Positions 6,946 to 58,045 of a DNA stretch of 64,000 nt are shown piece after piece. The position numbers were made by a program, and so were the translations under genes. This stretch comes from Candidatus Poribacteria bacterium (GTDB lineage: Bacteria; Poribacteria; WGA-4E; WGA-3G). The notes under the pieces were generated by a model. The model did no database searches and was not told the DNA's origin. It was given only the letters and a program-made list of their open reading frames with translations. How positions within the stretch are numbered: the first letter of the stretch is position 1; every line of letters starts with the position of its first letter. The stretch is from assembly GCA_965200395.1 (NCBI GenBank), contig CBDAUH010000003.1, positions 874,398 to 938,397 of the forward strand, written 5' to 3'.

Positions 6946-6998
6946 ATTGTTTATACCGAACTCACGTTACAATATAACCATAATTGTGAGGGACAGGT

Positions 6999-11528: not shown

Positions 11529-11660
11529 TGAGCTTTATCCCCCCGCAGGCGGGGGGAATATGTAGTGATTGTATACCCGCAGGCGGGGGAATGTGTAGTG
11601 ATGCATACCCGCAGGCGGGGGAATGAGAGAGTGGACCCGTAGGCGAGGGGAATGCGTCCA
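11516..11660. repeat. Tandem array of 4 units of about 32 bp, each with the palindrome CCCGCAGGCGGGG (REP-like)
   Basis: Units at about 11537, 11572, 11604 and 11634. One further unit lies at 10148-10162 on the other side of the IS. Confidence 0.6.
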
Positions 11661-13066: not shown

Positions 13067-13124
13067 GATTTAATTTTTTCGGTGGGAAATTATTTGGGTA
13101 GATTTTAATATGTTTCTGAATTTT

Positions 13125-13215
13125 GGATTACACTAAATCAACGGTATGAATGCCTTTTGGCATTCCCCGGATTACGCGGATAAACGTGGATTTTGTTTTT
13201 TGTGAGTACTGATGT
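13125..13215. repeat. Dispersed hairpin-containing intergenic repeat (copy R1)
   Basis: caaatcaacggtatgaatgccttttggcattccccggattacgcggat...ggattttgttttttgtga; near-identical copy at 18786-18890 and a degenerate copy at 15128-15215. Confidence 0.5.
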
Positions 13216-13553
13216 TTGTAGAGCAAATTTTTGAGTCTGCTGAAGAAATATCGGTGGTTAGAATTTCTTGATGATTCCATCTCGAACCGCTTTCAGGGCA
13301 TTCAATTTTAACGTGTTGGGTTTCACTGCGTTCAACCCAACCTACTGTAGGGGCGATCTTCCGCTCATGACCCCCTTCGCAACAATGCCCAAAAATCCGA
13401 CAATTGAATGGCTCTGGTACCGCTTTGCGACTGAATTCTTTATCAGTTGTTGTGTGTGCCCAAATTGTTTAGTTTTCTTCAGTAATTGTGGTGTGCTTCT
13501 AAACTGTTTCTACTCACTTATTAAGAATACGGAGTATTTTCTCAGTTTCTGCT

Positions 13554-15069: not shown

Positions 15070-15484
15070 GAGTGTTTTTGTTTTCAACGGAGGCATTCAA
15101 AAGTCGCGGATTTTTTGTCAGAATCTCGGATTTTCACCAAATCAACGGTATGAATGTCATTTAGGCGTTCCTCGGATTATCTTTGTCAGGATCGCGGAGG
15201 ACACTAAATCTGAGGCAATTGAATGGCTCTGGAAACATCACAGAAAAGGTTGCCTGTTCTACGGCAAATTTGTTATAATTTTAACATCATGTTTCGGGTG
15301 GAACTGCTACGAATCGGAAACCCTTTTTCGTTTCTCCGCCCCTTCTGCTGTAGCAGAGGATAGAATAAAATGGAGGCGGGAATCCGAGGGAGATGATACT
15401 GGAAGGATCGCTGCGTGTGTAGCAAACAAAACATGGCACACCCATCACCTTGCCACACCAAAATCTAATTTGGAGGTAATTAAA

Positions 15485-17373: not shown

Positions 17374-18756
17374 CTACTCACTCATTAAGTTAAGAATACG
17401 CAGTCCCTCCTCGATATCTGCTTTAAGTTTTACATCGCCCGCTTGTGTTGCAAGCCGCAGGGCAGTGCGGAGGTCTTGCCTCGCTTCCAGTGTCCGACCT
17501 AAAAGACCCTTTGCAAGTCCTCGACCGTAGTATGCATCGGCATAATCAGGTTTTAGTCTTATAGCGGTGTCATAATCGGCAATCGCAGCAAAATGTTGTC
17601 CCAAGTTATTCTTCGCAGCTCCCCGATTAAGGTATGCATCGGCAGCATTAGGTTTTAGTCTTATAGCGGTGTCATAATCGGCAATTGCAGCAAAATGTTG
17701 TCCTAAACGAGCCTTTGCATTTCCCCGATTGATGTACGCATCGGCATAATCAGGTTTTAATCTTATGGCGGTGTCAAAATCAGCAATTGCAGCAAAATGT
17801 TGTCCCAATTTACCCTTCGCATTTCCCCGATTATTGTATGCTGTGGCAACATCAGGTTCGAGTCCTATGGCAATGTTATAATCAGTAATCGCAGCAAAAT
17901 GTTGTCCCAATTTACCCTTCGCATTTCCCCGGTTGTTGTATGCTGAGGCAACATCAGGTTCGAGTTGGATAGCCTTAGTATAGTCAGCGATGGCACCCGC
18001 ATAATCGCCTAAATTGTACTTCACATTTCCCCACTGGAAGTAGGTCTCGGCAGAGATAGAACGTTGTCCTTGTGATAAAGGTTTTGACAGCTCCGGTTGC
18101 TTCAGCAGATTTTTAAGATATTTGGATGGAATGGCAAAGTTGAGGTTCTGCGCATCCAAATCCTTATAGACAGCAAAGGACACACCGATTACTTCGCCTT
18201 TTTTGTTTAGCACAGGACCGCCACTGCTCCCAGGAGAAATCGGCGCAGTCATCTGCAAACGTTCTTTTGTATATCTATCTCGACGGCTACTGATAATGCC
18301 ATTCGAGAAGGTTCCCTCTAATCCTTTCGGATTGCCCGCAACATAGACTGTCTCGCCGATTCGCACAGTATCGCTGTCACCAAGGGAAAGCGGTCTGATA
18401 CCGTACGCAGTTACCTTTAGGAGTGCCAGGTCGTTTATCTTGTCGGTTGCTGTAACGCCTTCGATGTTGTATTGGGTATATTTGCCGACTAACTTTGCGG
18501 TGCCTTTGGCTGCGCCTTCAATTACGTGGTAGTTCGTAGCAATGAGGTTAGACTTGACAAAGAATCCGCTGCCGATGCCGAGGGTTTTTCCGTTTTTGTC
18601 CTGCATCTCCAGGTATACTGTTGCTGCTAATGCTTTTTCTGCGATGTCTTCGGCGGGGAGGGTGGTTTGTGCTGGTGCTGTGATTGTTATGGAAAATAGG
18701 AGGAAAGCGATTGCGCATTGGGCGAATATCCACAATAATTTATTTCTGTGTTTCAT
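17374..18756 (-). CDS. Secreted trypsin-like serine protease with TPR array, paralog 2
   Basis: More than 90% identical to paralog 1 across the protease domain, with about 6 TPR units and an intact C-terminus ...LRILNLMSE. Confidence 0.8.
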   Translation of the reverse strand: MKHRNKLLWIFAQCAIAFLLFSITITAPAQTTLPAEDIAEKALAATVYLEMQDKNGKTLGIGSGFFVKSNLIATNYHVIEGAAKGTAKLVGKYTQYNIEGVTATDKINDLALLKVTAYGIRPLSLGDSDTVRIGETVYVAGNPKGLEGTFSNGIISSRRDRYTKERLQMTAPISPGSSGGPVLNKKGEVIGVSFAVYKDLDAQNLNFAIPSKYLKNLLKQPELSKPLSQGQRSISAETYFQWGNVKYNLGDYAGAIADYTKAIQLEPDVASAYNNRGNAKGKLGQHFAAITDYNIAIGLEPDVATAYNNRGNAKGKLGQHFAAIADFDTAIRLKPDYADAYINRGNAKARLGQHFAAIADYDTAIRLKPNAADAYLNRGAAKNNLGQHFAAIADYDTAIRLKPDYADAYYGRGLAKGLLGRTLEARQDLRTALRLATQAGDVKLKADIEEGLRILNLMSE

Positions 18757-18785: not shown

Positions 18786-18890
18786 TTGGTTCTGAATCGC
18801 GGATTACGCCAAATCAACGGTATGAATGCCATTTGGGCATTCCCCGGATTACGCGGATGAACGCGGATTTTGTTTTTTGTGACTGCTGGT
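18786..18890. repeat. Dispersed hairpin repeat (copy R3) inserted between promoter and start of protease paralog 2
   Basis: Near-identical to 13125-13215. Confidence 0.5.
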
Positions 18891-19009
18891 GTCTGTTTGT
18901 GGTATAGTTTTTCGTCTATGTTGTGCTTGTGCAACCTAAAGGTTTATGGTATATCGGCGTTTCGACCTATCTTCATATTTCGGGCAGTGAACTCATGTTA
19001 TTGTTGAAA

Positions 19010-22963: not shown

Positions 22964-24642
22964 TCACCTATTAAGAATACGTAGCAGCTTCTCGATATCT
23001 GCTTTGAGATTTGCATTGCCTGCTTGTGTCGCAAGCCGCAGTGCAGTGCGGAAGTCTTGTCTCGCTTCCAGTGTCCGACCTAAGCTACCCTTCGCAAGTC
23101 CTCGACCGTAGTATGCATCGGCATAATCAGGTTTTAGTCTTATGGTGGTGTCATAATCGGCAATCGCAGCAAAATGTTGGCCTAAGTTACCCTTTGCAAC
23201 TCCCCGGTTGTAGTATGCTAAAACATAGTCGGGTTTTAATCTTATAGCGGTGTCATAATCGGCAATCGCTTCAAAATGTCGTCCTAAGTTTTTCTTCGCA
23301 AGTCCCCGGTTGTTGTATGCTTTGGCATCATTTGGTTTTAGTCTTATAGCGGTATCATAATCGGCAATCGCAGCAATGTATTGTCCTAAATCGGTCTTCA
23401 CATTTCCCTGATTATAGTATGATGATACCTCATCGGGTTTTAGTCTTATAGCGATGTTATAATCGGCAATCGCCTTAAAATGTTGTCCTAAATTAGCGTT
23501 CACATTTCCTCGGTTGTTGTATGCTTTGGCATCATTAGGTTGTAATCTTATGGCGGTGTCATAATCGGCAATCGCAGCAGTGTATTGCCCTAAATCAGCC
23601 TTCGCCAGTCCTCGGTTGTTGTATGCTTTGGCCTCATTTGGTTTTAGCCTTATGGCGATGTTATAATCAGCAATTGCCTCAAAATGTTGCCTCAACTTAT
23701 GCTTCACAAATCCCCGGTTGTTGTATGCTTCGACATAATCAGGTTTTAGTCTTATAGCAGTGTCGTAATCGGCAATCGCCTCAAAATGTTGCCCCAGGTT
23801 ATACTTCGCAAGTCCGCGACTGTAGTATGCCGTGGCATTCTTTGGTTCGAGTTTTATGGCCTTGGTATAGTCTGCGATGGCACCTATATAATCGCCTAAC
23901 TCGGACTTCACATTCCCCCACAGGAGGTAGGTCTCCGCAGAGATAGAAGATTGTCCTTGTGATAAAGGTTTTGACAGCCCCGGCCCCTCCAGCAGCTTCT
24001 TAAGGTATCTGGATGGAATAGCGAAGTTGAGGTTCTGTGCATCCAAAGATCTATGGTAGAAAAGGACACACCGATTACTTTACCTTTTTTGTTTAGCACA
24101 GGACCGCCACTGCTCCCCGGAGAGATCGGCGCAGTCATCTGCAAACGTTCTTTTGTGTACTTATCTCGCCGGCTACTGATAATGCCATCCGAGAAGGTGC
24201 CTTCTAACCCTTTCGGATTACCTGCAACGTAGACTGTCTCACCGATCCGCACAGTATCGCTTTCGCCCAGCGAAAGTGGTTTGATGCCGTACGCTGTCAC
24301 CTTTAGGAGTGCAAGGTCGTTTATCTTGTCGGTTGCTGTAACGCCTTCAATCTTGTATTGGGTGTATTTACCGACTAACTTTGCAGTGCCTTTAGCTGCG
24401 CCTTCAATTACGTGGTGGTTGGTAGCAATAAGATTAGACTTTACAAAGAACCCGCTGCCGATTCCGAGGGTTTTTCCGTTTTTGTCCTGCATCTTCAAGT
24501 ATACTGTTGCTGCTAACGCTTTTTCTGCGATGTCTTCGGCAGGGAGGGTGGTTTGTGCTGGTGCTGTGATTGTTATGCAAAAGAGGAAAAAAGCGGCTGC
24601 ACATTGGGGGAATATCCACGATAATTTATGTCTGTATTTCAT
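22964..24642 (-). pseudogene. Trypsin-like protease with TPR array, paralog 3, frameshifted
   Basis: Split into ORFs 23908-24642 and 22964-24046. A 1-nt deletion relative to the paralogs lies near 24050; about 9 TPR units. Confidence 0.55.
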
Positions 24643-25911: not shown

Positions 25912-26418
25912 TTATCGAATGATTGCGAAGCGTCCGACCTTATTTCCGATGACTTCATTATTTTCATCTTGTGCTTCGACATGGAAGATATAAACGCCGC
26001 TGGCAAGGGCTTGATTATAGCGGTTGAGCAGATCGAATTCCGCTGTTCCGCCTTTGTCTCCTTGTGCTAATCGTTCGTCTGGCTTGAAGTCATCGCTACT
26101 TTCGTGTTTGATTTCACGGACTAGTTCCCCTGCCAACGTATAGATTCGTATAGTGCATCGTGGTGGCAGCCGTGTGAAGAAGATTTTGTCCGCTCCTTCA
26201 ACATTTTCCGCTTTGTTCGTAACAAAGTATGGATTTGGCACGACACGGATTCTATCGAGGTCTGCTTTGATGTTTTCGGATTCAAGTGATTCTTTTTTTG
26301 TGGTGAGTAGCTGCTCATCACCGTCCTGTGGGGCGCGGATACCTCCCATTTCAACGGTAAATACATCACCTTCAGATATTTCTCCATTTGGGTCGGAGAT
26401 ATAGACATAATACCATTT
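25912..26418 (-). CDS. C-terminal secretion/sorting-like domain (T9SS-CTD or FlgD-Ig-like), probably a detached C-terminal fragment
   Basis: VVPNPYFVTNKAENVEGADKIFFTRLPPRCTIRIYTLAGELVREI...SGVYIFHVEAQDENNEVIGNKVGRFAIIR. The open frame starts immediately at the IS630 boundary at about 26419. Confidence 0.45.
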   Translation of the reverse strand, partial: KWYYVYISDPNGEISEGDVFTVEMGGIRAPQDGDEQLLTTKKESLESENIKADLDRIRVVPNPYFVTNKAENVEGADKIFFTRLPPRCTIRIYTLAGELVREIKHESSDDFKPDERLAQGDKGGTAEFDLLNRYNQALASGVYIFHVEAQDENNEVIGNKVGRFAIIR

Positions 26419-26426
26419 CTAAGAGT

Positions 26427-27113
26427 TTATACTGCATTAGCAGCCTTTATGAAATGTGAGAACCCAGTGAGTTTAGCGATAGCAGCATCGGAATAACTTT
26501 GAAGTATCTCCGTCACTTTCGCTTGCATAGCCTCAAGCGTCTCATAGAACTCGGTAAACAACTTCGCTTTCAAGTCTTGCCAGAAACGCTCAATTGGGTT
26601 CAACTCCGGACTATACGGCGGTAAGAAAAGTAAAACAACATTAGCAGGAACCACTAACGATTTAGCATGATGAAAACGACCCTTATCAAGCACTAATAAG
26701 TTGAGGCTCTCCGCGTAGGCAACCGATACAGCATCAATGAAACACTGAAAACAATCTGAAGTCAAGTGGGAAAGTTCTAAGAAAAATCGCTCACCTGTCA
26801 AAGGTTCAACCGCACCATAGAGATAAACCGATGTATATTGGTAATCTATCTTCGCGACAGGTTTGACACCGCGTTGCGTGATACGCCGTTCTGTAGTAGG
26901 CAAAAGACCATATCGCGTCTCATCTTGACTGAAAACACGAACGCTTTGAAAATCCGCACCTTTTTCAGCAACCGCATCAGCGACATGTTTGCTAAACTCG
27001 GAGCGGAATGTTTCAGTCGCTACTGCGTTTTTTTTTACATGGCTCTTACGAGGCACTTTGAGTTTGGCTCCCCATTTATCATGAACCATTGCGTAAACAG
27101 TTTTATAGTTCAT
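26427..27113 (-). CDS. IS630 transposase, DDE domain (orfB)
   Basis: ...FLPPYSPELNPIERFWQDLK is the DDE_3 signature. Confidence 0.75.
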   Translation of the reverse strand: MNYKTVYAMVHDKWGAKLKVPRKSHVKKNAVATETFRSEFSKHVADAVAEKGADFQSVRVFSQDETRYGLLPTTERRITQRGVKPVAKIDYQYTSVYLYGAVEPLTGERFFLELSHLTSDCFQCFIDAVSVAYAESLNLLVLDKGRFHHAKSLVVPANVVLLFLPPYSPELNPIERFWQDLKAKLFTEFYETLEAMQAKVTEILQSYSDAAIAKLTGFSHFIKAANAV

Positions 27114-27478
27114 TTGATGCCAAACGTGTCAGCGATATACTTTTGGATTTCCACATAACTCGTAAAACCTTCAGGTTTCCGCAGTTCTTCAAGTAAGAGG
27201 GTTTGCTGTTCTTCAGTGAGGATGGGTTCGCGTCCGGGGGCGTATCCGCGTTGCAGCATTTTCTCAAGTCCGCCGGTTTCATAAGCATGTAGCCAGGTGC
27301 CGACACTTGTGCGATCAACGCCGAGGAGGCGGGCGACTTGGACACGATTTTTCGCCTCGCCACTTTTCAAGAGATAGAGCATATTCAGGCGCAGGATTTC
27401 ATGCTTCTTTTTCGCTTTTCGTAAGAGGTCTTTCAAGACCTCTACACTTTCTGTAATCTCTGGCACTTTTTTATTCAT
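27110..27478 (-). CDS. IS630 transposase, N-terminal HTH domain (orfA)
   Basis: Helix-turn-helix region ARLLGVDRTSVGTWL. It overlaps orfB by 4 nt. Confidence 0.7.
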   Translation of the reverse strand: MNKKVPEITESVEVLKDLLRKAKKKHEILRLNMLYLLKSGEAKNRVQVARLLGVDRTSVGTWLHAYETGGLEKMLQRGYAPGREPILTEEQQTLLLEELRKPEGFTSYVEIQKYIADTFGIK

Positions 27479-27535
27479 GGATGTTTCACTCCTTTAAAAG
27501 AATGGGGACCATAATAACACAGTTATGAAGAATAG

Positions 27536-36050: not shown

Positions 36051-36410
36051 TTAAAGGTTTAAAGTATGTCGTAAAGCCTCATCAATTTTATTCATTCGAA
36101 TTGAGCCGATGACCCGGTCGATCTCAGATTCTGCTACAGTAGCAAGATTGTCTGTCATCACTACTGAGTCCGTAATTAACCCTGATTCTTGTCCTTCATA
36201 AGTAGCAAGGAAAATTGGAACACGACTCGGGTGGTCAGATCGGAACATCTTGCTGGTTATCATCGCTACAATTACTTGTGGTAAACCCGTTTGCAGATTA
36301 TCTGCTTGAATAATCAATGCTGGACGGGGTTTGGCTGTAAGCATGTTTGAATCAGGGAAAATTGCTAAAATTACATCACTGCGTTTGTAATTTAGCTTTT
36401 TCCTCATCAT
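36051..36410 (-). CDS. MazF/PemK-family toxin (type II TA)
   Basis: YKRSDVILAIFPDSN...PRPALIIQADNL... fits a PemK-like fold. Start assumed at MMRKK. Confidence 0.6.
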   Translation of the reverse strand: MMRKKLNYKRSDVILAIFPDSNMLTAKPRPALIIQADNLQTGLPQVIVAMITSKMFRSDHPSRVPIFLATYEGQESGLITDSVVMTDNLATVAESEIDRVIGSIRMNKIDEALRHTLNL

Positions 36411-36636
36411 AGTTGTCATAGACACTCATCTCGGGGCTTTCCCAATCCTCTGCAAAGGTTGAGAAGCGTGCACGCAGATCTGCTGCTTGTGCTTCGTCAA
36501 TACCACGTTCACGCAAATCTATAGCATCAGATGAAAGAAAAGTTATGATGACGCGTGTGCCTTCATACGCATCATTAGGTGTTTCTGAGAGTTCTATTTT
36601 CCCATTGTGATATATACCTTCAATAGTTATTGACAT
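36376..36636 (-). CDS. Antitoxin (DUF104-like) paired with the MazF-like toxin
   Basis: MSITIEGIYHNGKIELSE is a typical DUF104 antitoxin N-terminus. It overlaps the toxin gene. Confidence 0.5.
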   Translation of the reverse strand: MSITIEGIYHNGKIELSETPNDAYEGTRVIITFLSSDAIDLRERGIDEAQAADLRARFSTFAEDWESPEMSVYDNYDEEKAKLQTQ

Positions 36637-36699
36637 GGTTATTTCTCCTTTTAAATGTAAAGTCTACTATATAACTGTGAATTTGGTATAAACAATTTT

Positions 36700-36757
36700 T
36701 GTAGAGCAAACTGTCAGTTTGCGTTCCACAGATGCACAAACTGTCAGTTCGATGCTC
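36700..36757. repeat. Palindromic repeat, copy B (two adjacent units; perfect GCAAACTGTCAGTTTGC at 36706-36722)
   Basis: tttgtagagcaaactgtcagtttgcgttccacagatgcacaaactgtcagttcgatgc. Confidence 0.55.
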
Positions 36758-36879
36758 AGTTTACGGTGATTTCATAAGACATTATGTTCTTCATACTTCT
36801 TACACCAATTGTATTTGAGTTAAAAGTAAAAACTCCTAACAGCTTCACGGTTTAATTTCGAGATTTGAGACGTTCAAAG

Positions 36880-37485: not shown

Positions 37486-40014
37486 CTAAAAATCCAAGCT
37501 CACGCCCACCATAATCAAGCGTGGGGAACTCCATGAGGCGGGACTGGAATGCTTCTGCGCAGTTAATGGAATACCATAGCGATCATACGTAACAGCGTCA
37601 AGTATGTTATCAAGGTTTTTCGTGTTAAAGATATTCCGAATATCTGCAAAGAGGGTGTATGTTATCCCACCAACCTGACTCCGTTTGCTAACGAGGGCGT
37701 CGACGTTGTAAGTTGCTGGATAACGTTTTGAGTTGATAGCAGGTTTGACCGGTGCTCTGGGATTGGGTGTGTAGGGTAAACCGCTGGCATATCTACCGAC
37801 AAAGTTAACAGCGGAAGCAAAGGGCAATTGAATGTCCAACGCTGCGGAAACAATATGGCGTTGATCCCAAGACAACGGATGACTTTCGGTTACTTCAGGT
37901 TGCTGGCGGTAATAAAGCAGGTATCCTAGGTTTCGACTGGAACCTTTACCTTTTGCCACAGAATAGGTATAGCTCAGCATGCCAGAGACTGGACTTCTAC
38001 CTGTTCGCCATTTTCGGATGGTAAGTTCAAATCCTTGAACGCGTCCATAAATGTCATTGAAGAAGTAACTATAATCGTTGGATATATCTACATGGATACT
38101 ATTGACAAGGTTTTCTATGTCTTTGGTAAATCCTGTTATGTCGATTGTTAAATCATCTGTGAATTGCTGGATAACCCCGACTTCATAAGCGATAGTTTTC
38201 TCAGGTTCCAAATCAGGATTACCTCTTCTACGGATTGCGCCCCGCATATCAAAGCTCAGGTTTTCGTACAGGTCATCACCGCGTGGGATTTGGTAGTAAT
38301 GTCCGTAAGTAAAATGCAATTTTGCCCTTTCTGTAATTGGGAACGAGATACCGAGCCGGGGTGCTATCATGTGTTTCGTTGATGCGTCAACAGGATTCTT
38401 GATAATCGGCAACCCGACTGAATACGTATCATAATCCAGTTTGATCGTTCCATCATCCTCGTTTAGGACGAGTGGATCTTCCGGTTTTTGGGGCGAGATA
38501 CCGTCTGGATTATACATGTCATACCGCAACCCAGCATTGACAATCATACCTTCATATTCCATTTTATCTTGGGCATATAGACTGAGGGATGTAGGTGTAA
38601 CATCGTAATACTCCATATAGAGGTTTGAACTGCCATAATTCGTAGTGCCTAGATTATAGAGATGGTTCGCTGAAAATTCAATACCTGTCTGGATTTGATG
38701 ATTTTCCGTAACTTGACTTGCAAAAACTCCTTTGAGAATTGATGTTGTGGAATTGCGGGTGACCCAGAAGTTGTTATCACCAGCGACATCATAGGTTGTG
38801 TCGTTGTATGCTTGCTGTGCAGGGTTTCTAATTCTACCTTCTTCCTGATTAAGCTCGAAGGATTTTTCGGGATCGTATGCGTTTTCTTCGAATGTTTTGT
38901 TCAATGGATCCCACAGTTTATCCGGTTGGTGACTATCGTAAGAACGGTGAAATTGCCCAAGTGTTAAGGTATAAAATGTTCCGGAGTTGATATTGTGTGA
39001 GAGCTGAACGGAAAGACTTCGGCCATCTCTGTTGTCCACCTCAATTGCATTGGGGATGAAACGTAGACTTCCGCCAGCGTTGCTAAATTCCCGTATATCG
39101 TAAAGTCCACTTGCAGTGAGTTTAATTTGTGGTGTCACTTCAAACTTGAGTTTACCTTGTAGTGTGTGTCCGCCGCTATTACTATTAGGCAGATAACTTT
39201 CATCTCTGCGCAACTGACTGGCGAAGGAGAATGTCAACCGATTACCTAATATTGGTCCGCTCAGTGCGAACTCTCCGATATGGCTTGGAGATAATCCGTA
39301 TTTTTTTGTATCGTTGAATAATCCGCTATATTGCTCTAGATCCACGGTGTAACCGTCTATCAGGGTGACCTGTTTTTTCTCGTAGTCAATTACGGTGCCA
39401 TCTGCGTCCATGAATGGTTGGCGTTCCATAATCACTTCACCTGTTTCTGGATTCACCTTGTTTTCGCCTGTTTCGGGATCAATTACTGGTTGCAATGGAT
39501 TTTCGGTTCTATCGGCATATACACCGGGAAATATTTCTGTAAAGACGATCTTATCATCACCTTCTTGATTTGCCAATTCACCAACTGTGGTAGGGTTTCC
39601 GCGGTAAGGGGTTTGATAATCGTAGGGTTTTCCGATAAATATACCTCTGAAGGGTTCAAGTGCTACTGGTCGGAAACCGTTGTCTGGGTCTAGCCAAGAT
39701 CCATAATAGGGGTCACCGTGGTGTTGTCCCCATTGGCCGACCCGGTATCTGATTCTTCCAGAAAATTTTTGTGTGCCAGCTTTTGTAATGAGATTAATGA
39801 CGCCAGATTGTGCGTCGCCGTGTTCTGCGTTGAAACCGCCGGTGATAACCTCCATCTGTTCAAGTGCGTTTGTACTAATTTGTAATCCCATGCCTCTGAA
39901 GATTGGGTCATTCACTGGGATGCCATCGATGAGATATTTAATCTCCATTGATCTACCCCCGCGAATGTGTAGCGAACCACTTGAATTAAGTACTGCAACA
40001 CCGGGTTGGGTTTG
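37486..40014 (-). pseudogene. TonB-dependent receptor, C-terminal plug plus barrel portion; gene interrupted by ISAs1
   Basis: Frame upstream of the M reads QTQPGVAVLNSSGSLHIRGGRSMEIKYLIDGIPVND (plug motifs). C-terminus ...LIMVGVSLDF. The N-terminal part of the gene lies at 41337-41822. Confidence 0.7.
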
Positions 40015-41336
40015 GTAGGGTTATTTAGTTTTATGTATTTTAGTTGTTTTTTATCACAATCGTTAATATTTTAGGATGTGCAGATATACCGTGATTTTTC
40101 ACGCTATATCTGCTATACTTCACCTTAAAAACTTACGATCTTTTGAGGTGAAGAATGACAAGAAAAAAGTCCTGCCACTTAATGGATATGTTAGCAGAAC
40201 TTACAGACCCACGCAAGGAAAAAGGGAAACGACACCCGTTGAAAGCAATCCTCGCACTTTTAGTCGTTGGATTGATGTGCGGGCATAAAGGGTATACATC
40301 CATCGCTACCTGGGCACGCTCACAGCCCGCACTCACAAAAGCACTCGGGTTCACACATCACAAAACGCCTTGTGCCGCAACTATCCATAATCTGTTGAAA
40401 AAGTTGGACGTTGAAGCATTAGAAAACATCCTGTCAAAATGGGTAAACGCCGCATTAGCAGAGTGCCCTGATTTGCGGGGGTGTTCCGACGCAGTCGCTA
40501 TAGATGGCAAAACACTGCGTGCGTCTAAAAAAAGTGGTGCGATGATCAGCCATTTACTCTCCGTCGTCTCTCATGAGTTAGGGATCACCCTCACGCAGCG
40601 AGGTGTCAGCGACAAAACCAATGAAATACCGGTATCAACGGAAATCCTCAAAGCGTTTGATGTAGCAGGCAAAGTTATCACAACGGATGCCCTTTTGACA
40701 CAACGCTCTTTCTGCCACGGAATCATAAACAGCGGGGGCGACTATATGCTGCCTGTTAAAGGCAATCAACCGGACCTGTTAGAAGCGATTGAAAAACTTT
40801 TTCAAGGCGTGCCTGACGCGGTTTCTGAAGACACAACACACCCTACTTTAGGGAAACCGATATACATGCATGAGACGATTGAAAAGTCGCATGGCAGACT
40901 TGAGACGCGATGTATCAAGGCAAGCACAAGTCTCAACGCATATCTGGATTGGCCGGGCGTAGCACAAGTGATCCAATATTGCTATACTTCCAAAAATATG
41001 AAGACAGGAGAAGAGACAACCCGCACTACCTATGGGATTACGAGCCTGAAACCGAGTGAGGCATCCGCAGAACGCTTACTTGCTTTACGGAGAGGCCATT
41101 GGGCAATAGAGAACAAGTCGCATTGGATGCGCGATGTGCTACTCGGCGAGGACGCATCACCTGTCAGATGCGGGGCTATTCCACAAGTCATGGCCGCTTT
41201 ACGAAATACCGCATTATCCGTATTCCGTTTTCAAGGCATAACACGGATCGCTGATAAAATAAAGGAATATGCATCAAAACCTTTACTCACAGTTAACTTG
41301 ATAAAATGAATATCTATAAAACTAAATAACCCTATG
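40015..41336 (+). mobile_element. ISAs1-family insertion sequence with 8-9 bp target-site duplication
   Basis: Inverted repeats TAGGGTTATTTAGTTTTAT at 40015-40033 and ATAAAACTAAATAACCCTAT at 41317-41336, flanked by direct repeats TGGGTTTGG. Confidence 0.75.
40155..41309 (+). CDS. ISAs1-family transposase
   Basis: C-terminal HWAIENKSHWMRDVLLGEDASPVR is the ISAs1/H-repeat signature. Confidence 0.8.
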   Translation: MTRKKSCHLMDMLAELTDPRKEKGKRHPLKAILALLVVGLMCGHKGYTSIATWARSQPALTKALGFTHHKTPCAATIHNLLKKLDVEALENILSKWVNAALAECPDLRGCSDAVAIDGKTLRASKKSGAMISHLLSVVSHELGITLTQRGVSDKTNEIPVSTEILKAFDVAGKVITTDALLTQRSFCHGIINSGGDYMLPVKGNQPDLLEAIEKLFQGVPDAVSEDTTHPTLGKPIYMHETIEKSHGRLETRCIKASTSLNAYLDWPGVAQVIQYCYTSKNMKTGEETTRTTYGITSLKPSEASAERLLALRRGHWAIENKSHWMRDVLLGEDASPVRCGAIPQVMAALRNTALSVFRFQGITRIADKIKEYASKPLLTVNLIK

Positions 41337-41822
41337 GGTTTGGAGAATGCCATTGACGGTATCGCGTGGCATGGAGGCAATTTCATCCGCTTCAATTATA
41401 CGTGTGGTTTGTGTTACATCCTTTTTAATCAGGGGTTTGGTCGCTGTCACCGTTACACCTTCAAGTTCTACTATCTCTGTCGCTTCCAATGTAAAGTTGA
41501 TGGTTGTGGTGAGGCCAGCAAATACTGTTGTCGATGCGATGGTTTTGGGAAGGTATCCTGGCAATTCAGCGCGAACATCATATCCGCCCGGATCTATATT
41601 TGTCATGACATAGTAGCCAGATTCGTTTGTTGTCGTGGATGTGCTTGTGTCGACGATTGAAATCTTGACATTCGCTAATGGTTGTTTTGATGCTTCAGCG
41701 GTGACAGTACCGGAGATTTTACCGATTGTGGCTGCATCAGTCATTTGAACGTTGAAGATTACAAATAATGTGAAAATACTCAGGGTGGAAAGAGCTATTT
41801 TAGAGATATTATTTACTTTCAA
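41337..41822 (-). pseudogene. TonB-dependent receptor N-terminal fragment (signal peptide, carboxypeptidase-regulatory-like domain, start of plug)
   Basis: Ends ...ASMPRDTVNGILQT and then reads into the IS inverted repeat. Continuity with the 37486-40014 fragment: ...ILQT | QPGVAV... Confidence 0.7.
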
Positions 41823-44146: not shown

Positions 44147-45562
44147 ACATATACTATAGTTTGGACATTTTGGGACATTCAGGCTGCGTTGTCCGCAGGC
44201 AATGCTGTCTCTTTGTGAAAATCGGTGTGTATTTTCTGTGAGTTTGTTTTTTCAGAGTAAATCGCAGAAAATACCGCTCTGTAGAGCTGCCAGCGGAGAT
44301 AAACTACACGCAACCCTTGTGTGAGACGCTTCGGATGATACCAATGGATGCCCAACTGATCACAAACTACCTGAGCACTTATCTCCTCCGCCGTCCCATC
44401 CCGTGGGGTGAATAGCAACTTCGTCAGACTTGCTGCAACGAAACTCAATTGCACAAACCGATTGATGCTTTTGCGGGATTTCAGGCGATAGTCATCAAAA
44501 CCGAAGTGTTGCTTCGCATCCCGAAAAGCCGTCTCTATGTGCCATCTCTTGCGATAATATATAGCGATCTGTGGTATCCCAATCGTCAAATCTGTTGTCC
44601 ATACACAGAAATACCGATAAGGTTTCGAGGTTTTCGGGCGACTTCGGATAACAACGAGGCGAATATCAGCATCGCACATCTTCGTTCTCACGACTTTGGA
44701 GGCGATTGAATACTTTTGGCCTTCTATATCCATAAGCGTATACCGCATCCTGCGAATATCCAAGCGGTCTCCATATTTTCGCGGACGGCCACGCTGGCGA
44801 TGTTTCGGCTGTTCCGGTAAACGATAGAAGACGGCATTAGACTTCGCACGACACAAGATATGATGTCCATAACTTTGAACCAGCGTAAACACTTTTCGCC
44901 TTGAGAACCCACGATCAAAAATAATAAGACCCGGAGCGATCTGGGAACAGATGCGTTTCAACACCGCATCGCTTTTATCACGGCACGTCTGCGGCACCAT
45001 CAGTCTCGCCCATACGGGGAATAGCTGCCAACCTATAGATGTTTGGCAAAGTAAACCTAAGGCACCAAACTCGTGTCCATAATGGAACTTGGATCGGTTC
45101 ACGCGACCCTTTTGATAACTGAAGTTGCGGAAAAAATGCAACCCCCACTGGCGTTCACCTGTTTTTATGGCTTTGGTCTCATCATACACATAAACCCAGT
45201 TAGGAAATGCTTGCTGAACCTTTTTTGTCAGGTGTCCTGCGACTTTATCCGCATCCCATTTACCACGCGATAGAAACTTTGGAAAAGACCAGTATCGCGT
45301 CTGTGAAAAACCTGATTGATAAAGTTCCGTTAGCGTGCCACTATTTCCATCTGCGATAAATCCGAAAATAAACGCTTGGAAAAGAGCATAGTTTTGTGTG
45401 TTGAACAGATACTGAAAATCTGATAGAATGTCGTCTAAGCAGAAAAGGAGGTTCATTTTTTATTCTCCTTTCAAAAAATATATTTGTTTATGAAAGGATA
45501 CCTGCTTTTCTGTTTTTTCGCACTAAAAATTTCTAAAATTGTCCAAACTATAGTTACATATA
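44147..45562 (-). mobile_element. IS4-superfamily insertion sequence, copy 1, inserted at the 3' end of ybeY
   Basis: Inverted repeats acatatactatagtttggacatttt at 44147-44171 and aaaattgtccaaactatagttacatat at 45536-45562; internal DDE transposase ORF. Confidence 0.7.
44179..45456 (-). CDS. IS4-superfamily DDE transposase
   Basis: RWHIETAFRDAKQHFGFDDYRLKS; paralog of 52530-53762. Confidence 0.75.
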   Translation of the reverse strand: MNLLFCLDDILSDFQYLFNTQNYALFQAFIFGFIADGNSGTLTELYQSGFSQTRYWSFPKFLSRGKWDADKVAGHLTKKVQQAFPNWVYVYDETKAIKTGERQWGLHFFRNFSYQKGRVNRSKFHYGHEFGALGLLCQTSIGWQLFPVWARLMVPQTCRDKSDAVLKRICSQIAPGLIIFDRGFSRRKVFTLVQSYGHHILCRAKSNAVFYRLPEQPKHRQRGRPRKYGDRLDIRRMRYTLMDIEGQKYSIASKVVRTKMCDADIRLVVIRSRPKTSKPYRYFCVWTTDLTIGIPQIAIYYRKRWHIETAFRDAKQHFGFDDYRLKSRKSINRFVQLSFVAASLTKLLFTPRDGTAEEISAQVVCDQLGIHWYHPKRLTQGLRVVYLRWQLYRAVFSAIYSEKTNSQKIHTDFHKETALPADNAA

Positions 45563-50091: not shown

Positions 50092-50943
50092 ATGGCAAGA
50101 CAACAACGAGGTCTAGCATCAGAGAGCATATTTCAACGTATTTCGAACTTCGCGCGTGGGTTGTTTGCATTGGTTCGGGAAAAGGAAACTTATATTGCAA
50201 TTCTACGTTGGAGTTTCTGGCGTATTACACCTAAGCGTCGCCGTATTCTCAGGTTAATCCGTGAGCTCAAACCACTTGTTGAGGAGGCTCCGGCTGAAAT
50301 GCATGCCCTTCGTGAAGAAGTTTTTTCAAAATGCTGTCTTGAGCTCCGACTACAGCATGACCAACAAAAGTTATTGGAAATTCTGAACAGTGTTGAACAT
50401 CCCGTGGGCTATGAGCAGATTTTTTTCACTGCTATTTACCCGATATTGATTAAGCGAGATATGGCGGCAAATCCAATCCATACTGAACAACACCATCGGC
50501 TTGAGGTTGAAATTGGATATTTGGCACACAACGAGGATTATTTCTTCTGGGTATTTGAGATTGACAGTGAGAGACGCATGTCTCTGAATACGGAGCTGGA
50601 TGTACGGGAAGAACAACGTGAAGACAAACGGTTTGTAGTCTATACACTTGGGTGTAGGGGGTTGGTTGAAACCGACTTTGCGGAATATGCGGAGCAATGG
50701 TTACTAAACGCTCCTCGTTTATCAATATCACTTCCGATGCTTGCAACTGCGTATTCTGAGCAGTGGATTCTTAACACACGGATATATTTTTCACACATAT
50801 TAAAGGATCTTAAGAGACGGAATTATAAAGTCACAGCAGAGGCGATACCTGATTTTGAACGGGCGCGGTTGTCAATTCTACGCCGTCTTTCCCTGCTTCA
50901 GTTAGAAAGACGTCAATCTCAGTCCTCACGCCGAAATCGTTGA
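50092..50943 (+). CDS. Hypothetical protein
   Basis: 283-aa ORF with ATG at 50092; no motif. Its 3' end overlaps the convergent aminopeptidase gene by 113 bp. Confidence 0.35.
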   Translation: MARQQRGLASESIFQRISNFARGLFALVREKETYIAILRWSFWRITPKRRRILRLIRELKPLVEEAPAEMHALREEVFSKCCLELRLQHDQQKLLEILNSVEHPVGYEQIFFTAIYPILIKRDMAANPIHTEQHHRLEVEIGYLAHNEDYFFWVFEIDSERRMSLNTELDVREEQREDKRFVVYTLGCRGLVETDFAEYAEQWLLNAPRLSISLPMLATAYSEQWILNTRIYFSHILKDLKRRNYKVTAEAIPDFERARLSILRRLSLLQLERRQSQSSRRNR

Positions 50944-52012
50944 GATAGATACCGGGTTCAATTGAAAAACAGATTCCGGGAATGAGTATTCGGGCATCTC
51001 GTGTCTCAAGATTGTCTAAATTGACTCCATTACCGTGTATCACGGTTCCAATGTTATGTCCCGTGCGGTGTATAAAGTACTCGCCATATCCTTTTTCTGT
51101 AATGTACCCACGAACACAATCATCAACTGCGTAACCTGGAATTGGTTCGTTTGCGGCATATTTTTCGCGTATGAACGTTACTGCTCTATCTCGTGCTTCT
51201 TTAACAATTTCAAATATTTTTACATATTTGTCAGGGACAGAAGAACCGGCATAAGCGACCCATGTTGTGTCTGCGAATACTGCATCTGGTTCCTTCTGTT
51301 TTGCCCATAGATCGATTAGGATAAAATCCCCCTTCTGGATCTGTTGAGATTTATCTGCGGTTGGTGTGTAATGTGGGTCGCTACTGTTAGCATTGACTGC
51401 GACAATAGGTGGGTGATCGGCGATTAAGTTCATCTCATCGAACAGATTAAGAATCTGTTGTTGAACATCATATTCAGTAATTGGATTACCGGTTTTGAGT
51501 TGGTTGCCAATCCATGCGAATGCGTAATCTTTTACCTGCAGAATCTGTCGTGCAGATTTCACATGCCCTTCATATTGGGCGTTGGTAAGTCGTGCTTCTA
51601 CATGTTGTGCAAGTTCTGCTGATGATACGATCTCGATACCAAAACTACGGATCCATTCCAATGTACCAGCGTCTACACGGGAAATGTAGGGAATTGATGC
51701 GTTAGGTGAATACTCCATTGCTACCGATTGAATATTTTTGAGCAGTTTTGGCATTTCTTGGTTGAGTTCTTGCCACCCGGCATATAGAGATACCTCTCCG
51801 GACACATCCGTAAAATTTGATGTTTCAATTCGATGGATTAACCATCGTGGGTCACCTTGTTTAGGTATTAGGCAAAACCAGCGGCGTGTGATATTTTTTT
51901 CTGCAAAGCCTGCTACGTTTTGTGAGATAGGGTTGATACCGCGAAAGTCATAGAGGAGCCAAGCTTCAATATTTAATGTTGAGAGTATACTTTGGATTTC
52001 ATATATTTTCAT
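50831..52012 (-). CDS. M24-family Xaa-Pro aminopeptidase/creatinase-like peptidase
   Basis: HRTGHNIGTVIHGNG...CFSIEPGIY pita-bread motifs. ATG at 52012. Confidence 0.75.
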   Translation of the reverse strand: MKIYEIQSILSTLNIEAWLLYDFRGINPISQNVAGFAEKNITRRWFCLIPKQGDPRWLIHRIETSNFTDVSGEVSLYAGWQELNQEMPKLLKNIQSVAMEYSPNASIPYISRVDAGTLEWIRSFGIEIVSSAELAQHVEARLTNAQYEGHVKSARQILQVKDYAFAWIGNQLKTGNPITEYDVQQQILNLFDEMNLIADHPPIVAVNANSSDPHYTPTADKSQQIQKGDFILIDLWAKQKEPDAVFADTTWVAYAGSSVPDKYVKIFEIVKEARDRAVTFIREKYAANEPIPGYAVDDCVRGYITEKGYGEYFIHRTGHNIGTVIHGNGVNLDNLETRDARILIPGICFSIEPGIYLNDFGVRTEIDVFLTEAGKDGVELTTAPVQNQVSPLL

Positions 52013-52159
52013 AATATGTCAATCTGTTGAAGAACAAGATTCGTTTTGAAAACTGGCAATTATATTAGCAAAAGAATTAGATCGAGTCAAATTTGTTAAA
52101 TGGTTGCAAAGTGTCATCGCAAGTCTTGTTGGGCTTGCTCCTTTCTTTACCTACGGTGT

Positions 52160-52200
52160 ACAACCTAGGGAGTTCGATGCTCAATGCGTAAGTTCTGTTC
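52160..52200. repeat. Palindromic repeat family, copy D
   Basis: tgtacaacctagggagttcgatgctcaatgcgtaag. Confidence 0.4.
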
Positions 52201-52334
52201 GCTGTGCAAAATATTTTACGCATTCTGCATATACACGCATGATATAGTAACGGAAAAATAAATCTTATTGTGGAGATATAAATGACGTTTTTCGATTTCA
52301 TCCCCCCTGTTATATTTATATTTTGGGGAACTGT

Positions 52335-53911
52335 TATTATTACTATAGTTTGGACATTTTTGGTCTTGTTATAGATTATGAATAGTTGGCAGCATTTCCC
52401 CGTTAGCACTTCTGAACAGGTGTTAGAACCGCTGCTAACGCCCCTTTTCTGTCTAAATTCTGTTAGAAATCACTGTTTTTTAGCCATCATTTTTCCAATA
52501 ATCGTGAAAATAGTTGCTGTTGAACTAGTTCATGTAGTATCTTCGGGGATTTTTAGTTTTTTCTGTGCGTTTTTCCTCGGATCGTAACCCGTATAAAAAT
52601 AGTTTTGTTGTAAACGTCGCTGCAAGTAAGCGGTCATCAAGCCGCGTGTGAGATGTTTCGGTTTATACCAGTGTATATTGAGCGTGGATAGCACGTCTTC
52701 TAAATCAAGAGAAACCTTGTCTGTGTCTGTGTCTGCGGGTGTCTTAGGCAATGGCGACGGACTGAAAGCGAGTTGTGTCAGCGTTGCTGCGGTGAAACTG
52801 AGTTGAGCGAACCGATCCAAACTTTTCCTGTCTCGGAGTTGATAGGTGTCAAATCCGAAGTTTTCTTTAGCGTCCCGAAAGGCAGTTTCAATCTGCCATC
52901 GGTTTCTATAGTGTCGGATAACTGTTTCTACGGGCAGTCGTAAATCTGAAGTAAATACACAAAAATACCGATAGGGTTTAGACTTTTTCAAGCGTTTGCG
53001 TATCACAACGATGCGGACATCTACAGGACACATCTTTGTTCGCACGACTTTATCAGCGACAGAAAGTGTCTGATCCTCAACAACGATATCTGTATACTTC
53101 AGGTGTGGAATAGACACACGGCTACCATACCGACGGGGTCTGCCTCTCTTGAGACGCTTAGGGCGTTTCGGTATATCAAAAAACGCTGCGTTTGACTTCG
53201 CACGACAAAGTAAATGATGTCCTTGTGAGAGTATCTCCGTGAACACTTTGCGTCTATTGAAACCTCTATCAAAAATGATAAGACCCGGTGGCACAAGATT
53301 ACATAAATGCTTCAGCACAGCGAGGCTATTCGCGTCCTCGCTTTTCGGTTCCATCATCCGTGTGGCTAATGGAAATAGGCGCGTGCCTTCGCGCGTTTCT
53401 GCCAGCCAGCCAATCGCACCGAACTCGTGTCCGTGATGAAACTTGGACTGGTTCTTGTTACGTGCCTGATACGCAGGGTTCCTGCGGAAATGCAAACCCG
53501 CTTGTTTTGAACCGCTACTTATGGCATGCGTCTCATCATAGACATAGACGCCCGTGGGGTAAGCGGATAGCACTTGATGGCTTAGCGTAGTGGCGACTTG
53601 ATCCACACACCAGATGCCACGCGAGAGAAACTTTGGCAGAGACCAATACCGACCTGCTTGGGCTGTCGCAAGATAGATTTGTGTCATTGTGCCTCGGTAG
53701 GGCGTATTTATCAGACCTTTTACGAAAGTCTGAAAGTGGTGAAAGTTATTATACTTGAACAAAGGTCAAAAATCTGATAACATGTTGTCCAAGTAGGAAA
53801 GTGGGGTCATTTGAAATATCCTTTCAAATTTGTGTTTCCTAAAAGGATACCCGCTTTCCTGCTTTATGTCCATAAAAAAAACAAAAATTGTCCAAACTAT
53901 AGTTATTATTA
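52335..53911 (-). mobile_element. IS4-superfamily insertion sequence, copy 2 (related to 44147-45562)
   Basis: Inverted repeats ttattactatagtttggacattttt at 52335-52361 and tgtccaaactatagttattatta at 53889-53911. Confidence 0.7.
52530..53762 (-). CDS. IS4-superfamily DDE transposase
   Basis: RWQIETAFRDAKENFGFDTYQLRD; about 50% identical to 44179-45456. Confidence 0.75.
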   Translation of the reverse strand: MFKYNNFHHFQTFVKGLINTPYRGTMTQIYLATAQAGRYWSLPKFLSRGIWCVDQVATTLSHQVLSAYPTGVYVYDETHAISSGSKQAGLHFRRNPAYQARNKNQSKFHHGHEFGAIGWLAETREGTRLFPLATRMMEPKSEDANSLAVLKHLCNLVPPGLIIFDRGFNRRKVFTEILSQGHHLLCRAKSNAAFFDIPKRPKRLKRGRPRRYGSRVSIPHLKYTDIVVEDQTLSVADKVVRTKMCPVDVRIVVIRKRLKKSKPYRYFCVFTSDLRLPVETVIRHYRNRWQIETAFRDAKENFGFDTYQLRDRKSLDRFAQLSFTAATLTQLAFSPSPLPKTPADTDTDKVSLDLEDVLSTLNIHWYKPKHLTRGLMTAYLQRRLQQNYFYTGYDPRKNAQKKLKIPEDTT

Positions 53912-56307: not shown

Positions 56308-57720
56308 TTACCCTTTTATGATTGCCCAAACTGTTCTCAAGATGATTTTTATGTCTAAGGTGATAGACCAGTTTTCTATATAGTATCGATCATAGTTTAC
56401 GCGGTCTTCAAGTGGTGTATTTCCGCGCAATCCGTTAACTTGTGCCCATCCTGTCATTCCAGATTTAACGCGCTGTCGTGCAAGGTAGTGTGGTATTGTT
56501 TCTTGGAATGTATCGATTAGGCCGGACATCTCTGGGCGGGGTCCTACTAGGCTCATATCACCTTTGAGAACATTTAGGAATTGGGGCAATTCGTCCAAAC
56601 TCCATCGTCTCAGAAATTTGCCGAGGCTAGTCTGGCGTGGGTCATCATTTTTTGCCCACACATGTCCGACGTTATATTCTGCGTCTGCGTGCATAGATCG
56701 GAATTTATAGATGTTGAATCGTTTACCTGCTCTACTGACGCGTTCTTGTGTGAAAATTGCTTTACCGGGAGAATTCAGCCGTATAGCTGCTGCAATTATT
56801 AACATGAGTGGGCTTAATACTATTAAAGCGAACAGACTAAACACAATGTCTATCAATCGTTTTATGATTCCACTTACCCCTTGCATCGGTATGTCACGGA
56901 GTTGAAGGGCGGGTAATCCTTCAAAGTATGTTACTGCTGTTCTGCCTTTGATGAATTCTGAAAGTTCAGGCAGAACGTATATCTGAATAGGGATTCCTTC
57001 ACATGCATGAAGAATATGCAGGATCGTATGATTTGCCACGGTTGGTGCTGTAATAAATAGCATATCAAGTTGGCATCTTTTCACTATTTCAAGTATCTCA
57101 TTGCTGTTACCGAGTAATGCAAAATGTGAACCATCAGCGAGAGATATATCTGTGTTTTCTTCATCATCAATCAATCCAACTAATTTGTGTCCACAGTTTG
57201 ATTCGGAATTTATAGCGTTGATGAATTGTATGCTCCGTTCATCATAACCGACGAGTGCAACACGACTTATGCCTACACCTTGTGCTTGTACTGCTTGGCG
57301 AAACCGGTGAAACACAAGACGGCATAACAGTAAGAAAACGAGGTTAAAACCTGTTGCAAGGAGCATAACCCATCGGGAATACGGAACATGATGCTGGACA
57401 AAAAAGAGTGTGGCTAATGTGCCGATTAAGGCGATAGCAGATGTTTTGCATAGGTTCCAAAAAACTACTGATGCGGCATATTTATCTGGTTGGTATAACT
57501 TAAACCCCTTCAACGCCGCTAGCCAGATAATTGCTGTCACTGGGATTAGTCGGAGATAGTCATTGAAAGGCGGTGTGCCCCCTTTATGTAATGCCAGTGT
57601 GCTGAGCCAATTTGATTCAAATCGAACCCAATATGCAATAACGATTGCAGTTGCGATAAAACATAGATCACATAGGACTGTAAGTGCAATTAGTAAATGG
57701 TCAAGTGTTTTTTTGCTCAT
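56308..57720 (-). CDS. Polyprenyl-phosphate sugar phosphotransferase (bacterial sugar transferase, WbaP-like)
   Basis: C-terminal RPEMSGL... with ...KFRSM...DELPQFLNVLKGDMSLVGPRPE. ATG at 57720 chosen over TTG at 57735. Confidence 0.75.
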   Translation of the reverse strand: MSKKTLDHLLIALTVLCDLCFIATAIVIAYWVRFESNWLSTLALHKGGTPPFNDYLRLIPVTAIIWLAALKGFKLYQPDKYAASVVFWNLCKTSAIALIGTLATLFFVQHHVPYSRWVMLLATGFNLVFLLLCRLVFHRFRQAVQAQGVGISRVALVGYDERSIQFINAINSESNCGHKLVGLIDDEENTDISLADGSHFALLGNSNEILEIVKRCQLDMLFITAPTVANHTILHILHACEGIPIQIYVLPELSEFIKGRTAVTYFEGLPALQLRDIPMQGVSGIIKRLIDIVFSLFALIVLSPLMLIIAAAIRLNSPGKAIFTQERVSRAGKRFNIYKFRSMHADAEYNVGHVWAKNDDPRQTSLGKFLRRWSLDELPQFLNVLKGDMSLVGPRPEMSGLIDTFQETIPHYLARQRVKSGMTGWAQVNGLRGNTPLEDRVNYDRYYIENWSITLDIKIILRTVWAIIKG

Positions 57721-57862
57721 GAATGAAGTCCGCAAATCTAACCTATTCTAACGTCGTTAAATGATTTATAGGACTTACGCAATTTCGGTTGAATTCGGGG
57801 TTACAAACCGCTCTAAAAAAGTTTGTGCTCCTTGTAGGGTAACCTTTCTAGGCTGCGTCCCC

Positions 57863-57890
57863 GATGCACAAACTGGAAAGTTTATGCTAC
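57863..57890. repeat. Palindromic repeat family, copy C, in a divergent promoter region
   Basis: gatgcacaaactggaaagtttatgctac. Confidence 0.5.
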
Positions 57891-58045
57891 GATGCGTAAG
57901 TCTTGTGATTTATTATTATACAACGTCTGACTTGAGATTTCAACAAGGATGTATTGCAATATCATTTCGCCAAACTTTTGAGCTGAAACATTGCTGATAA
58001 TTTGTTGATGATGTGCTATTCTATTGCTTATTAGGAGGGATAGAC

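Follow-up and report, generated by a model that had tools for sequence, protein, structure and literature searches.

The window and its genes

The window analysed here, by which is meant the whole 64 kb stretch of DNA, derives from the genome of a Candidatus Poribacteria bacterium, a sponge symbiont, and has a G+C content of 43.8%. It contains a fused glycyl-tRNA synthetase gene (6999-10415), a search with which matched 80 Poribacteria loci among species-representative genomes (best identity 88%). About 46 of the 59 retained open reading frames (ORFs) lie on the minus strand, and five DDE insertion sequences (IS) are present. A short palindromic motif recurs at five places, referred to as sites A to E (Table 1), and the labels originally given to the genes beside it agree with Pfam. 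The only Rfam matches in the window are two tRNAs, and nothing is found at site A even at E values up to 1.

Table 1. Positions in the 64 kb window of the repeat units, the boxes that accompany them and the neighbouring genes
Feature	Position	Strand	Basis or remark
Site D, single unit GTAGCATAACCTTTCCAGGTTGTGC	414-456 (447 down to 423)	-	CM 42.8 bits, exact match to refined consensus
Inverted ACGTGAGTTYG box pair bracketing unit D	388-399, 472-482	+, -
Site B, head-to-head dimer	6876-6950 (units 6876-6917, 6909-6950)	.	CM 37.1 and 41.2 bits
Site B, first unit	GTAG 6885-6888, stem-loop 6888-6908	+
Site B, second unit	perfect palindrome 6920-6936, CTAC 6938-6941
Flank box ACGTGAGTTCGG adjoining site B	6956-6967	-
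Degenerate copy ACTGTGAATTTGG of flank box ACGTGAGTTYGG	36674-36686	+	sequence read, alignment with site B
Site A, head-to-head dimer	36692-36766 (units 36692-36733, 36725-36766)	.	CM R1 42.0 and 26.7 bits
Site A, unit 1	GTAG 36701-36704, perfect palindrome GCAAACTGTCAGTTTGC 36706-36722	+	11-nt spacer follows
Site A, unit 2	36734-36755		degenerate tag CTCA, not CTAC (36755-36758); bulged stem
Site E, degenerate unit	52149-52195 (unit 52149-52191)	-	weak, CM 20.2 bits, E=0.03; tag TGAG, poor stem
Site C, complete 137-bp MITE with head-to-head dimer	57769-57905	.
Site C, degenerate unit	57825-57867		weak, E=0.27
Site C, intact unit	57857-57899, GTAG 57890-57887	-
ACGTGAGTTYG box, all places	window 388-399, 472-482, 6956-6967; L026, L029, L045, L060, L061, L063, L078, L080, L083		GTAG units nearby or not
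PhyH-family dioxygenase	667-1464		Pfam
HEAT-repeat protein	2966 to about 6820		Pfam
PemK/MazF toxin and upstream partner	36051-36636		Pfam
M24 peptidase	50831-52012		Pfam
Sugar transferase, divergent from Gfo/Idh/MocA gene	56308-57735		Pfam

Recognition of the repeat at five loci

The original prediction described a dispersed palindrome, GCAnAAAC-N5/6-GTTTnTGC, upstream of five unrelated genes. Copies at all five claimed loci were borne out by profile and covariance-model searches. With a profile made from the five copies, nhmmer matched those five loci only within the 64 kb window, and a covariance model (R1) built from 34 units recovered eight units at the same five loci and none elsewhere in the window. 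The motif itself is thus real, but the consensus as first written is loose. Its N5 form, with up to two mismatches, finds only 6888-6908, which is not above chance, whilst the N6 form finds 423-444 and 57866-57887, a count of two that is reached by 3 of 100 shuffles. Read on the better-folding strand, the refined consensus is TTGTAGCAYARNCT-N3-4-AGNYTGTGC, in which a GTAG tag is followed by a 9-bp stem. The form GTAGCAYARNCT-N4-AGNYTGTGC, again on the GTAG strand, occurs exactly at sites C and D, and none of 100 shuffles reaches the observed count.

Sites D and E are single units, and A, B and C are head-to-head dimers with their GTAG tags outside. The two units predicted at 36700-36757 were recovered by R1 as such a dimer, site A. 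Sites A and B have 71 nt in common at 90% identity, in inverted orientation, and at site A the degenerate box copy lies 14 nt ahead of the GTAG. The stem of D differs from that of C by a compensatory change, AAAC/GTTT to AACC/GGTT. At site E the unit adjoins a single inverted repeat of MITE type, TGCGTAAGTTC (52185-52195), which recurs in part, inverted, at 52216-52226. Including loci from other species, seven tight head-to-head dimers were recorded (A, B and C, together with L029, L060, L086 and L095), as against a single tandem pair and no tail-to-tail dimer.

A hairpin carrying a GTAG tag

The motif forms a hairpin and does not represent two half-sites for a protein. In the 34-unit alignment, both partners have changed in 8 of the 12 base pairs of the model, and the measures applied were not equalled by any of 500 shuffles. 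The 9-bp core stem is paired, with covariation, in most cells. Six variants of the inner stem were found, all of them complementary (AAAC/GTTT, AACC/GGTT, AATC/GATT, AGGC/GCCT, AGCC/GGCT and AGAC/GTCT), and several occur within one genome. The two arms co-vary so as to keep their pairing, both within one genome and between genomes, as is characteristic of a nucleic-acid hairpin and not of two sites bound by a protein. Wobble pairs in the core stem are distributed unequally, with 45 cells on the GTAG strand and 15 on the other, and at one stem position the pair is C-G, or else T-G, a wobble present on just one of the strands. The tag itself, which reads CTAC on the strand of the model, is kept in 45 of the 59 aligned matches (76%), its GTA being mostly unpaired.

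Folding computations give -6.6 kcal/mol for single units, with z of about -4.2, and z = -4.3 for site D folded as DNA. The dimers at A and B fold as single hairpins, with z from -2.6 to -4.4; the 71-nt stretch at site A forms one long hairpin (z = -3.6 and -4.4). No stable fold was obtained for site E. An intrinsic terminator was considered for these hairpins and ruled out, there being no T run and both strands reading TTT-stem-AAA.

Location with respect to genes

The units are strictly extragenic. As originally proposed, every unit in the window lies outside plausible genes; the only ORF call to cover a unit well inside its length is a short one with a GTG start (52077-52409), which is probably spurious. 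Across the window and the other species, 54 of 54 units are extragenic in DNA of which some 90% is ORF.

The further claim that the copies stand upstream of minus-strand start codons is correct, the distances being 56-164 nt from starts at 333, 6820, 36636, 52012 and 57720-57735, but it is scarcely informative. With so large a share of the ORFs on the minus strand such a position carries little information, and for the same reason the spacers that hold A, B and D are also downstream of a minus-strand gene. Of the 54 units, 31 occupy spacers between co-directional genes, 4 are in convergent and 7 in divergent spacers, and the rest fall at locus edges or at over-extended ORF starts. Among the co-directional units, GTAG is on the sense side in 27 and on the antisense side in 4. 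After merging of orthologous sites this bias falls to 9 versus 2 independent loci (p = 0.065); it was accordingly dropped as not significant, and it is in any case confounded with replication-strand bias, as most genes lie on one strand.

Transposon scaffolds and flanking boxes

Site C is a complete MITE. It is bounded by 13-bp inverted repeats, TAGGACTTACGCA (57769-57781) and TGCGTAAGTCTTG (57893-57905), and alignment with L108, L109 and L111 reveals a 7-bp target duplication, TGATTTA, at 57762-57768 and 57906-57912. At least this copy arrived by cut-and-paste transposition, and its ends point to a DDE transposase, not a Y1 enzyme. It is the only one of the five sites to combine inverted repeats, a target duplication, lack of coding sequence and a length under about 300 bp. 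At A and B neither inverted repeats nor target duplications were seen and the element ends are indefinite, and at D the inverted box pair is present with no duplication seen.

The first of the shared flanks in the original prediction, 'gatgcgtaagt' at C and E, proved to be the terminal inverted repeat of this MITE family, in keeping with the view taken then that the shared flanks favour a mobile repeat. The second, 'ggtataaacaat...tttgtagag', is indeed shared, but by A and B only. The end pair GGACTTACGCA/TGCGTAAGTCC was found at nine further places in other species, the ends being 88-250 bp apart and flanked by duplications of 5-7 bp. The interiors of these elements are unrelated: some hold the unit hairpin, some other GTAG hairpins, and some none. 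No autonomous IS with TAGGACTTACGCA-type ends was found as a partner in the sampled DNA.

A second scaffold is provided by elements of IS630 type. In L069 (two copies) and L086 the unit lies inside MITEs that are flanked by TA and bounded by TACCATTTCT and AGAAATGGTA, and the window itself has an IS630-family element with DDE_3 and HTH ORFs (~26412-27510), the left end of which, at ~26412, reads TACCATTTCT. As a separate observation, ten loci of other Poribacteria have TA-flanked MITEs of 107-397 bp with TACCATTTCT ends, and the GTAG-type hairpin inside differs from one to the next.

A third association is with a box, (T)A-ACGTGAGTTYGR (ACGTGAGTTYG), followed by an A-rich stretch, which is found beside A, B and D and, in other species, on its own as well. 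The pattern ACGTGA[GA]TT[TC]G has 14 matches in 1.73 Mb, as against ~0.8 expected. That the box is the end of the MITE is doubtful, as at D and B it runs opposite to the TGCGTAAGTCC ends and it is solitary elsewhere; it may mark the end of a different element or be associated with promoters. The hairpin is thus held by TA-flanked IS630-type elements, by TAGGACTTACGCA-ended elements and by ACGTGAGTTYG-box composites, and since it is found in several scaffolds as well as on its own, it behaves as a module.

Distribution among Poribacteria

Particular lineages have gained or lost units, each time as a discrete block. The scan covered the window, with its eight units in 64 kb, and 1.66 Mb of other Poribacteria species, in which about 45 units are spread very unevenly. 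No unit occurs in 92 kb from the four nearest relatives, against three within the 20 kb of the window that is syntenic. Positions orthologous to B, C and E, and the region upstream of the antitoxin gene (A), lack the unit in relatives with 84-88% protein identity, and the empty sites at B and C are short or clean.

The spacer between glyQS and the HEAT gene is 31 nt in ten related species and 177 nt in the window, where the extra ~140 nt hold the site B dimer. The element at site C is present in the same-strain locus L108, and a clean empty site is found in L109 and L111, relatives at 87-88% protein identity (and in L110 too). Precise empty-site polymorphism is also seen for a 108-bp element that contains a unit in L069 and is missing from its close relative L080. 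In L022, what precedes the orthologous antitoxin gene is a set of other genes and no unit, and same-strain short-read (Logan) contigs terminate inside site A. For site E, no unit occurs in the syntenic region of L109-L111, and the segment differs in all three genomes compared. A promoter-like sequence, TTGACT-17-TAATAT, lies upstream of the M24 gene (52053-52092, minus strand), outside the site E unit; it is conserved in L109 and L111, and the DNA further upstream is fully variable. In L067 another repeat family is nested inside the loop of a unit.

The spacer between the NIPSNAP and PhyH genes is an insertion hot spot. It is empty in eight species (the window and seven others), holds a unit in ten, and in three (L056, L076 and L082) holds a different GTAG-tagged hairpin, CTACGGCACACGGCGTGTGCCTGCTAC or GTAGCAGGCACACGCCGTGTGCCGTAG. 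The inserted segment upstream of PhyH is only ~36-40 nt long and has no recognisable ends, and the TAG stop codon of the upstream gene overlaps the GTAG tag of these units. Site D has no alignable counterpart in the relatives. All that the window retains of one gene is its final 19 codons (MKELGDEYYYDTDGSVADW*), at 555-612; in 45 other Poribacteria this gene is complete, runs convergently to PhyH and encodes a product ending ...PEELGGE[FY]YYDTDGSVADW*. Unit D lies beside the breakpoint.

Searches of wider collections returned little. The exact 27-mer has no match in the species-representative genomes, and a degenerate pattern gave 11 single matches in JGI metagenomes, none with hairpin or flank similarity, which is consistent with chance. 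Two IMG/VR contigs classed as viral carry one well-formed intergenic unit each (L105, 6051-6092; L107, 13974-14015); a third match, in L106, lies inside coding sequence and looks like chance.

Relationship to known repeats

The idea that the motif is a selfish repeat of REP or MITE kind, offered in the original prediction as an alternative to an operator, is borne out by the GTAG hairpins, the head-to-head dimers, the empty-site polymorphism, the complete MITE at C and the nested insertion in L067. The family is new, but its kind is already known. GTAG REPs form a superfamily that includes the E. coli REP/BIME, Pseudomonas GTAG-1 and Stenotrophomonas SMAG repeats; they were surveyed in eight phyla, Poribacteria not among them (Di Nocera, De Gregorio and Rocco 2013, PMC3733652). 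They have a stem of 6-13 bp and an unpaired GTAG, fall into compensatory subfamilies, contain G-T pairs, form head-to-head dimers, and lie between unidirectional or convergent genes, where the tag may supply a TAG stop codon (PMC3733652). The Poribacteria units resemble them closely, with a 9-bp core stem and a largely unpaired terminal GTAG, compensatory stem subfamilies, G-T pairs that favour one strand and a predominance of head-to-head dimers, and with extragenic positions, mostly in unidirectional or convergent spacers, in which the tag is usable as a TAG stop. High copy number, tens to hundreds per genome, is a further mark of this class; the counts for the present family cover 64 kb of the source genome and 1.66 Mb of other species. 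Two features of the sequence set the Poribacteria units apart. The stem is A+T-rich (GCAYAAACT), whereas those of proteobacterial REPs are typically G+C-rich, and the tag is kept in 76% of matches, whereas in most published GTAG families it is conserved in more than 90% (PMC3733652). No description of REPs or MITEs in Poribacteria was found in the literature.

The dimers also resemble REPINs, in which an inverted pair of units with a short spacer forms one long hairpin (Bertels and Rainey 2011, PMC3116915), and single units beside dimers, with a lineage-specific distribution, are likewise features of the REPIN-RAYT system (PMC3116915). In that system, however, a single-copy RAYT gene is flanked by the same REPs, and no such gene was found in the sampled DNA; nor do REPINs lie, as the dimer at C does, within a MITE that has terminal inverted repeats and has duplicated its target. 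Site C is instead reminiscent of DDE-derived MITEs (the IS630-derived RUP, and Correia/NEMIS), being 137 bp long and non-coding, with inverted repeats, a duplication and an empty site. In other species, too, the unit is found, as in IS630-derived MITEs, between TA-flanked ends that are those of the IS630-family element in the window. Unlike in DDE-derived MITEs, the conserved part is the internal hairpin and not the ends, and the hairpin also occurs without any ends. A comparable case is GTAG-15 of Anabaena variabilis, dimers of which are inserted within long palindromes (PMC3733652). In both cases REP dimers regularly lie in a longer inverted-repeat framework; in Poribacteria there are several different frameworks, at least two of them with transposition-type target duplications.

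Mobilisation and alternative explanations

The reading preferred here, to which a probability of about 0.7 is attached, is that the motif is the stem-loop of a GTAG-tagged REP-type repeat belonging to a Poribacteria family, the free units and dimers of which would be copied by a RAYT-type Y1/HUH enzyme. By analogy with the mechanism proposed for other GTAG REPs, copying would involve single-stranded DNA hairpins as the substrate of the transposase. Copies in the sense orientation within transcribed spacers would also fold in the mRNA, possibly with a side effect on stability or translation, and such folding of the units is plausible. No RAYT/Y1 (PF01797) gene was found by Pfam among 40 ORFs of the window, and none by phmmer with E. 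coli TnpA-REP (4ER8) in 1.92 Mb, a sample that covers ~0.4% (~23 kb) of each related genome. The regular expression MPNHVH gave no match; this pattern is narrow, the E. coli RAYT having PEHMH. As the hairpin is also present inside IS630-type MITEs, some or all of its spread could have been as a passenger. It may be spread by a RAYT-type enzyme, by DDE transposases acting on the carrier MITEs, or by both.

The passenger idea can be taken to its limit by supposing that all copies are pieces of DDE-moved MITEs, carried either by an IS with TAGGACTTACGCA ends or by the IS630-family element with TACCATTTCT ends, and that the hairpin is internal cargo with no mobility of its own, free units and dimers being decayed remnants. 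This is unlikely, although much of the evidence from the scaffolds speaks for it: the inverted repeat, duplication and clean empty site at C, the recurrence of the same ends with their 5-7 bp duplications in nine more places, the TA-flanked elements of L069 and L086 whose end is shared with the window IS630 element, the single MITE end retained at E and the inverted boxes around D. The same inverted repeats nevertheless enclose unrelated interiors, some with no hairpin, the PhyH-upstream insertion lacks recognisable ends, and A and B display neither inverted repeats nor a target duplication. Moreover, three or more unrelated scaffolds contain the hairpin, facing either way with respect to their ends, which argues that the hairpin acts as an independent module. 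It is tempting to go further and to regard the hairpin as an independently mobile cassette that has settled repeatedly in unrelated MITE scaffolds throughout this candidate phylum, or the MITEs as having been built around hairpins, by hairpin-targeted insertion or through a selected function at the RNA level, possibly without a classical RAYT; this, too, is a doubtful proposition at present.

Considerably less probable is that the units are kept mainly as RNA hairpins, acting as mRNA stabilisers, processing sites or translation dampers, with mobility secondary. The sense orientation of GTAG in co-directional spacers (27 against 4 units, or 9 against 2 loci) and the concentration of wobble pairs on that strand (45 against 15) are what such a role would lead one to expect, and the PhyH-upstream unit has been kept in about ten species, between the stop codon and the ribosome-binding site. 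The orientation bias, however, reaches only p = 0.065 in independent counts and is confounded with replication strand, dimers place one unit antisense, there is neither a terminator-like U run nor an Rfam match, and the orthologous genes of close relatives manage without a unit. The other reading in the original prediction, in which a dimeric regulator binds the dyad as its operator and controls the five genes as a regulon, is refuted. In its favour are the dyad symmetry and the intergenic position 56-164 nt upstream of start codons, and site C does fall within a divergent promoter region. Half-sites for a protein would be held to one consensus, but here the arms co-vary for complementarity even within one genome, and in relatives at 84-88% protein identity every orthologous site open to examination is empty. 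No common function links the neighbouring genes, the dimer at C lies between transposon ends with a duplicated target, and site E does not include the promoter-like sequence conserved ahead of the M24 gene. The 90% identity of A and B over 71 nt indicates common descent rather than convergence.

Implications

For the interpretation of this genome, a false lead is removed, in that the five neighbours of the motif do not form a regulon. A repertoire of REPs and MITEs is added for Poribacteria, an uncultured phylum of sponge symbionts that lay outside the 2013 survey of GTAG repeats (PMC3733652). Such repeats break short-read assemblies, as in the Logan contigs; they also flag hot spots of insertion and can be used to tell strains apart. 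The interaction of REPs with MITEs may become clearer from the occurrence of REP-type hairpins inside several transposon scaffolds, and, were the cassette or scaffold explanation true, hairpin-targeted insertion or a selected RNA-level function would be operating in Poribacteria.

Other repeats and insertion sequences in the window

A TonB-dependent receptor gene is interrupted at 40016-41334 by an IS that encodes a DDE_Tnp_1 transposase and has inverted repeats of 26 bp; the two parts of the gene are the flanking ORFs 37486-39948 and 41322-41822. The receptor gene is intact (1002 aa) in the same-strain Logan contigs L001-L003, and this insertion is therefore polymorphic in the population. A second IS, with a DDE_5/DDE_Tnp_1 transposase and the ends CTATAGTTTGGACA, is present in two copies (44153-45554 and 52336-53909) with 9-bp duplications, TTACATATA and TTATTATTA, the second copy being 145 nt from unit E. 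That IS elements target the REPs was considered and ruled out: the two IS701-like copies in the window, with their 9-bp duplications, lie in ordinary spacers and not in units.

Two further repeat families were noted. The hairpin repeat CCCGCAGGCGGGG(G)AATG, at 10137-10160 and 11536-11650, has four tandem copies ~32-34 nt apart and one more copy across the DDE transposase gene at 10256-11515. Three paralogous genes (13554-14984, 17374-18756 and 22964-24642) contain arrays of 102-nt repeats, equivalent to 34 codons and thus of TPR length, and their upstream regions are conserved (repeat families D1-D7). The repeat family AATCAACGGTATGAATGCC...GGCATTCCCCGGATTACGCGGAT (13111-13219, 15115-15164 and 18787-18896) adjoins these paralogues, and it is this family that is nested within the loop of the GTAG unit in L067 (1966-2038).
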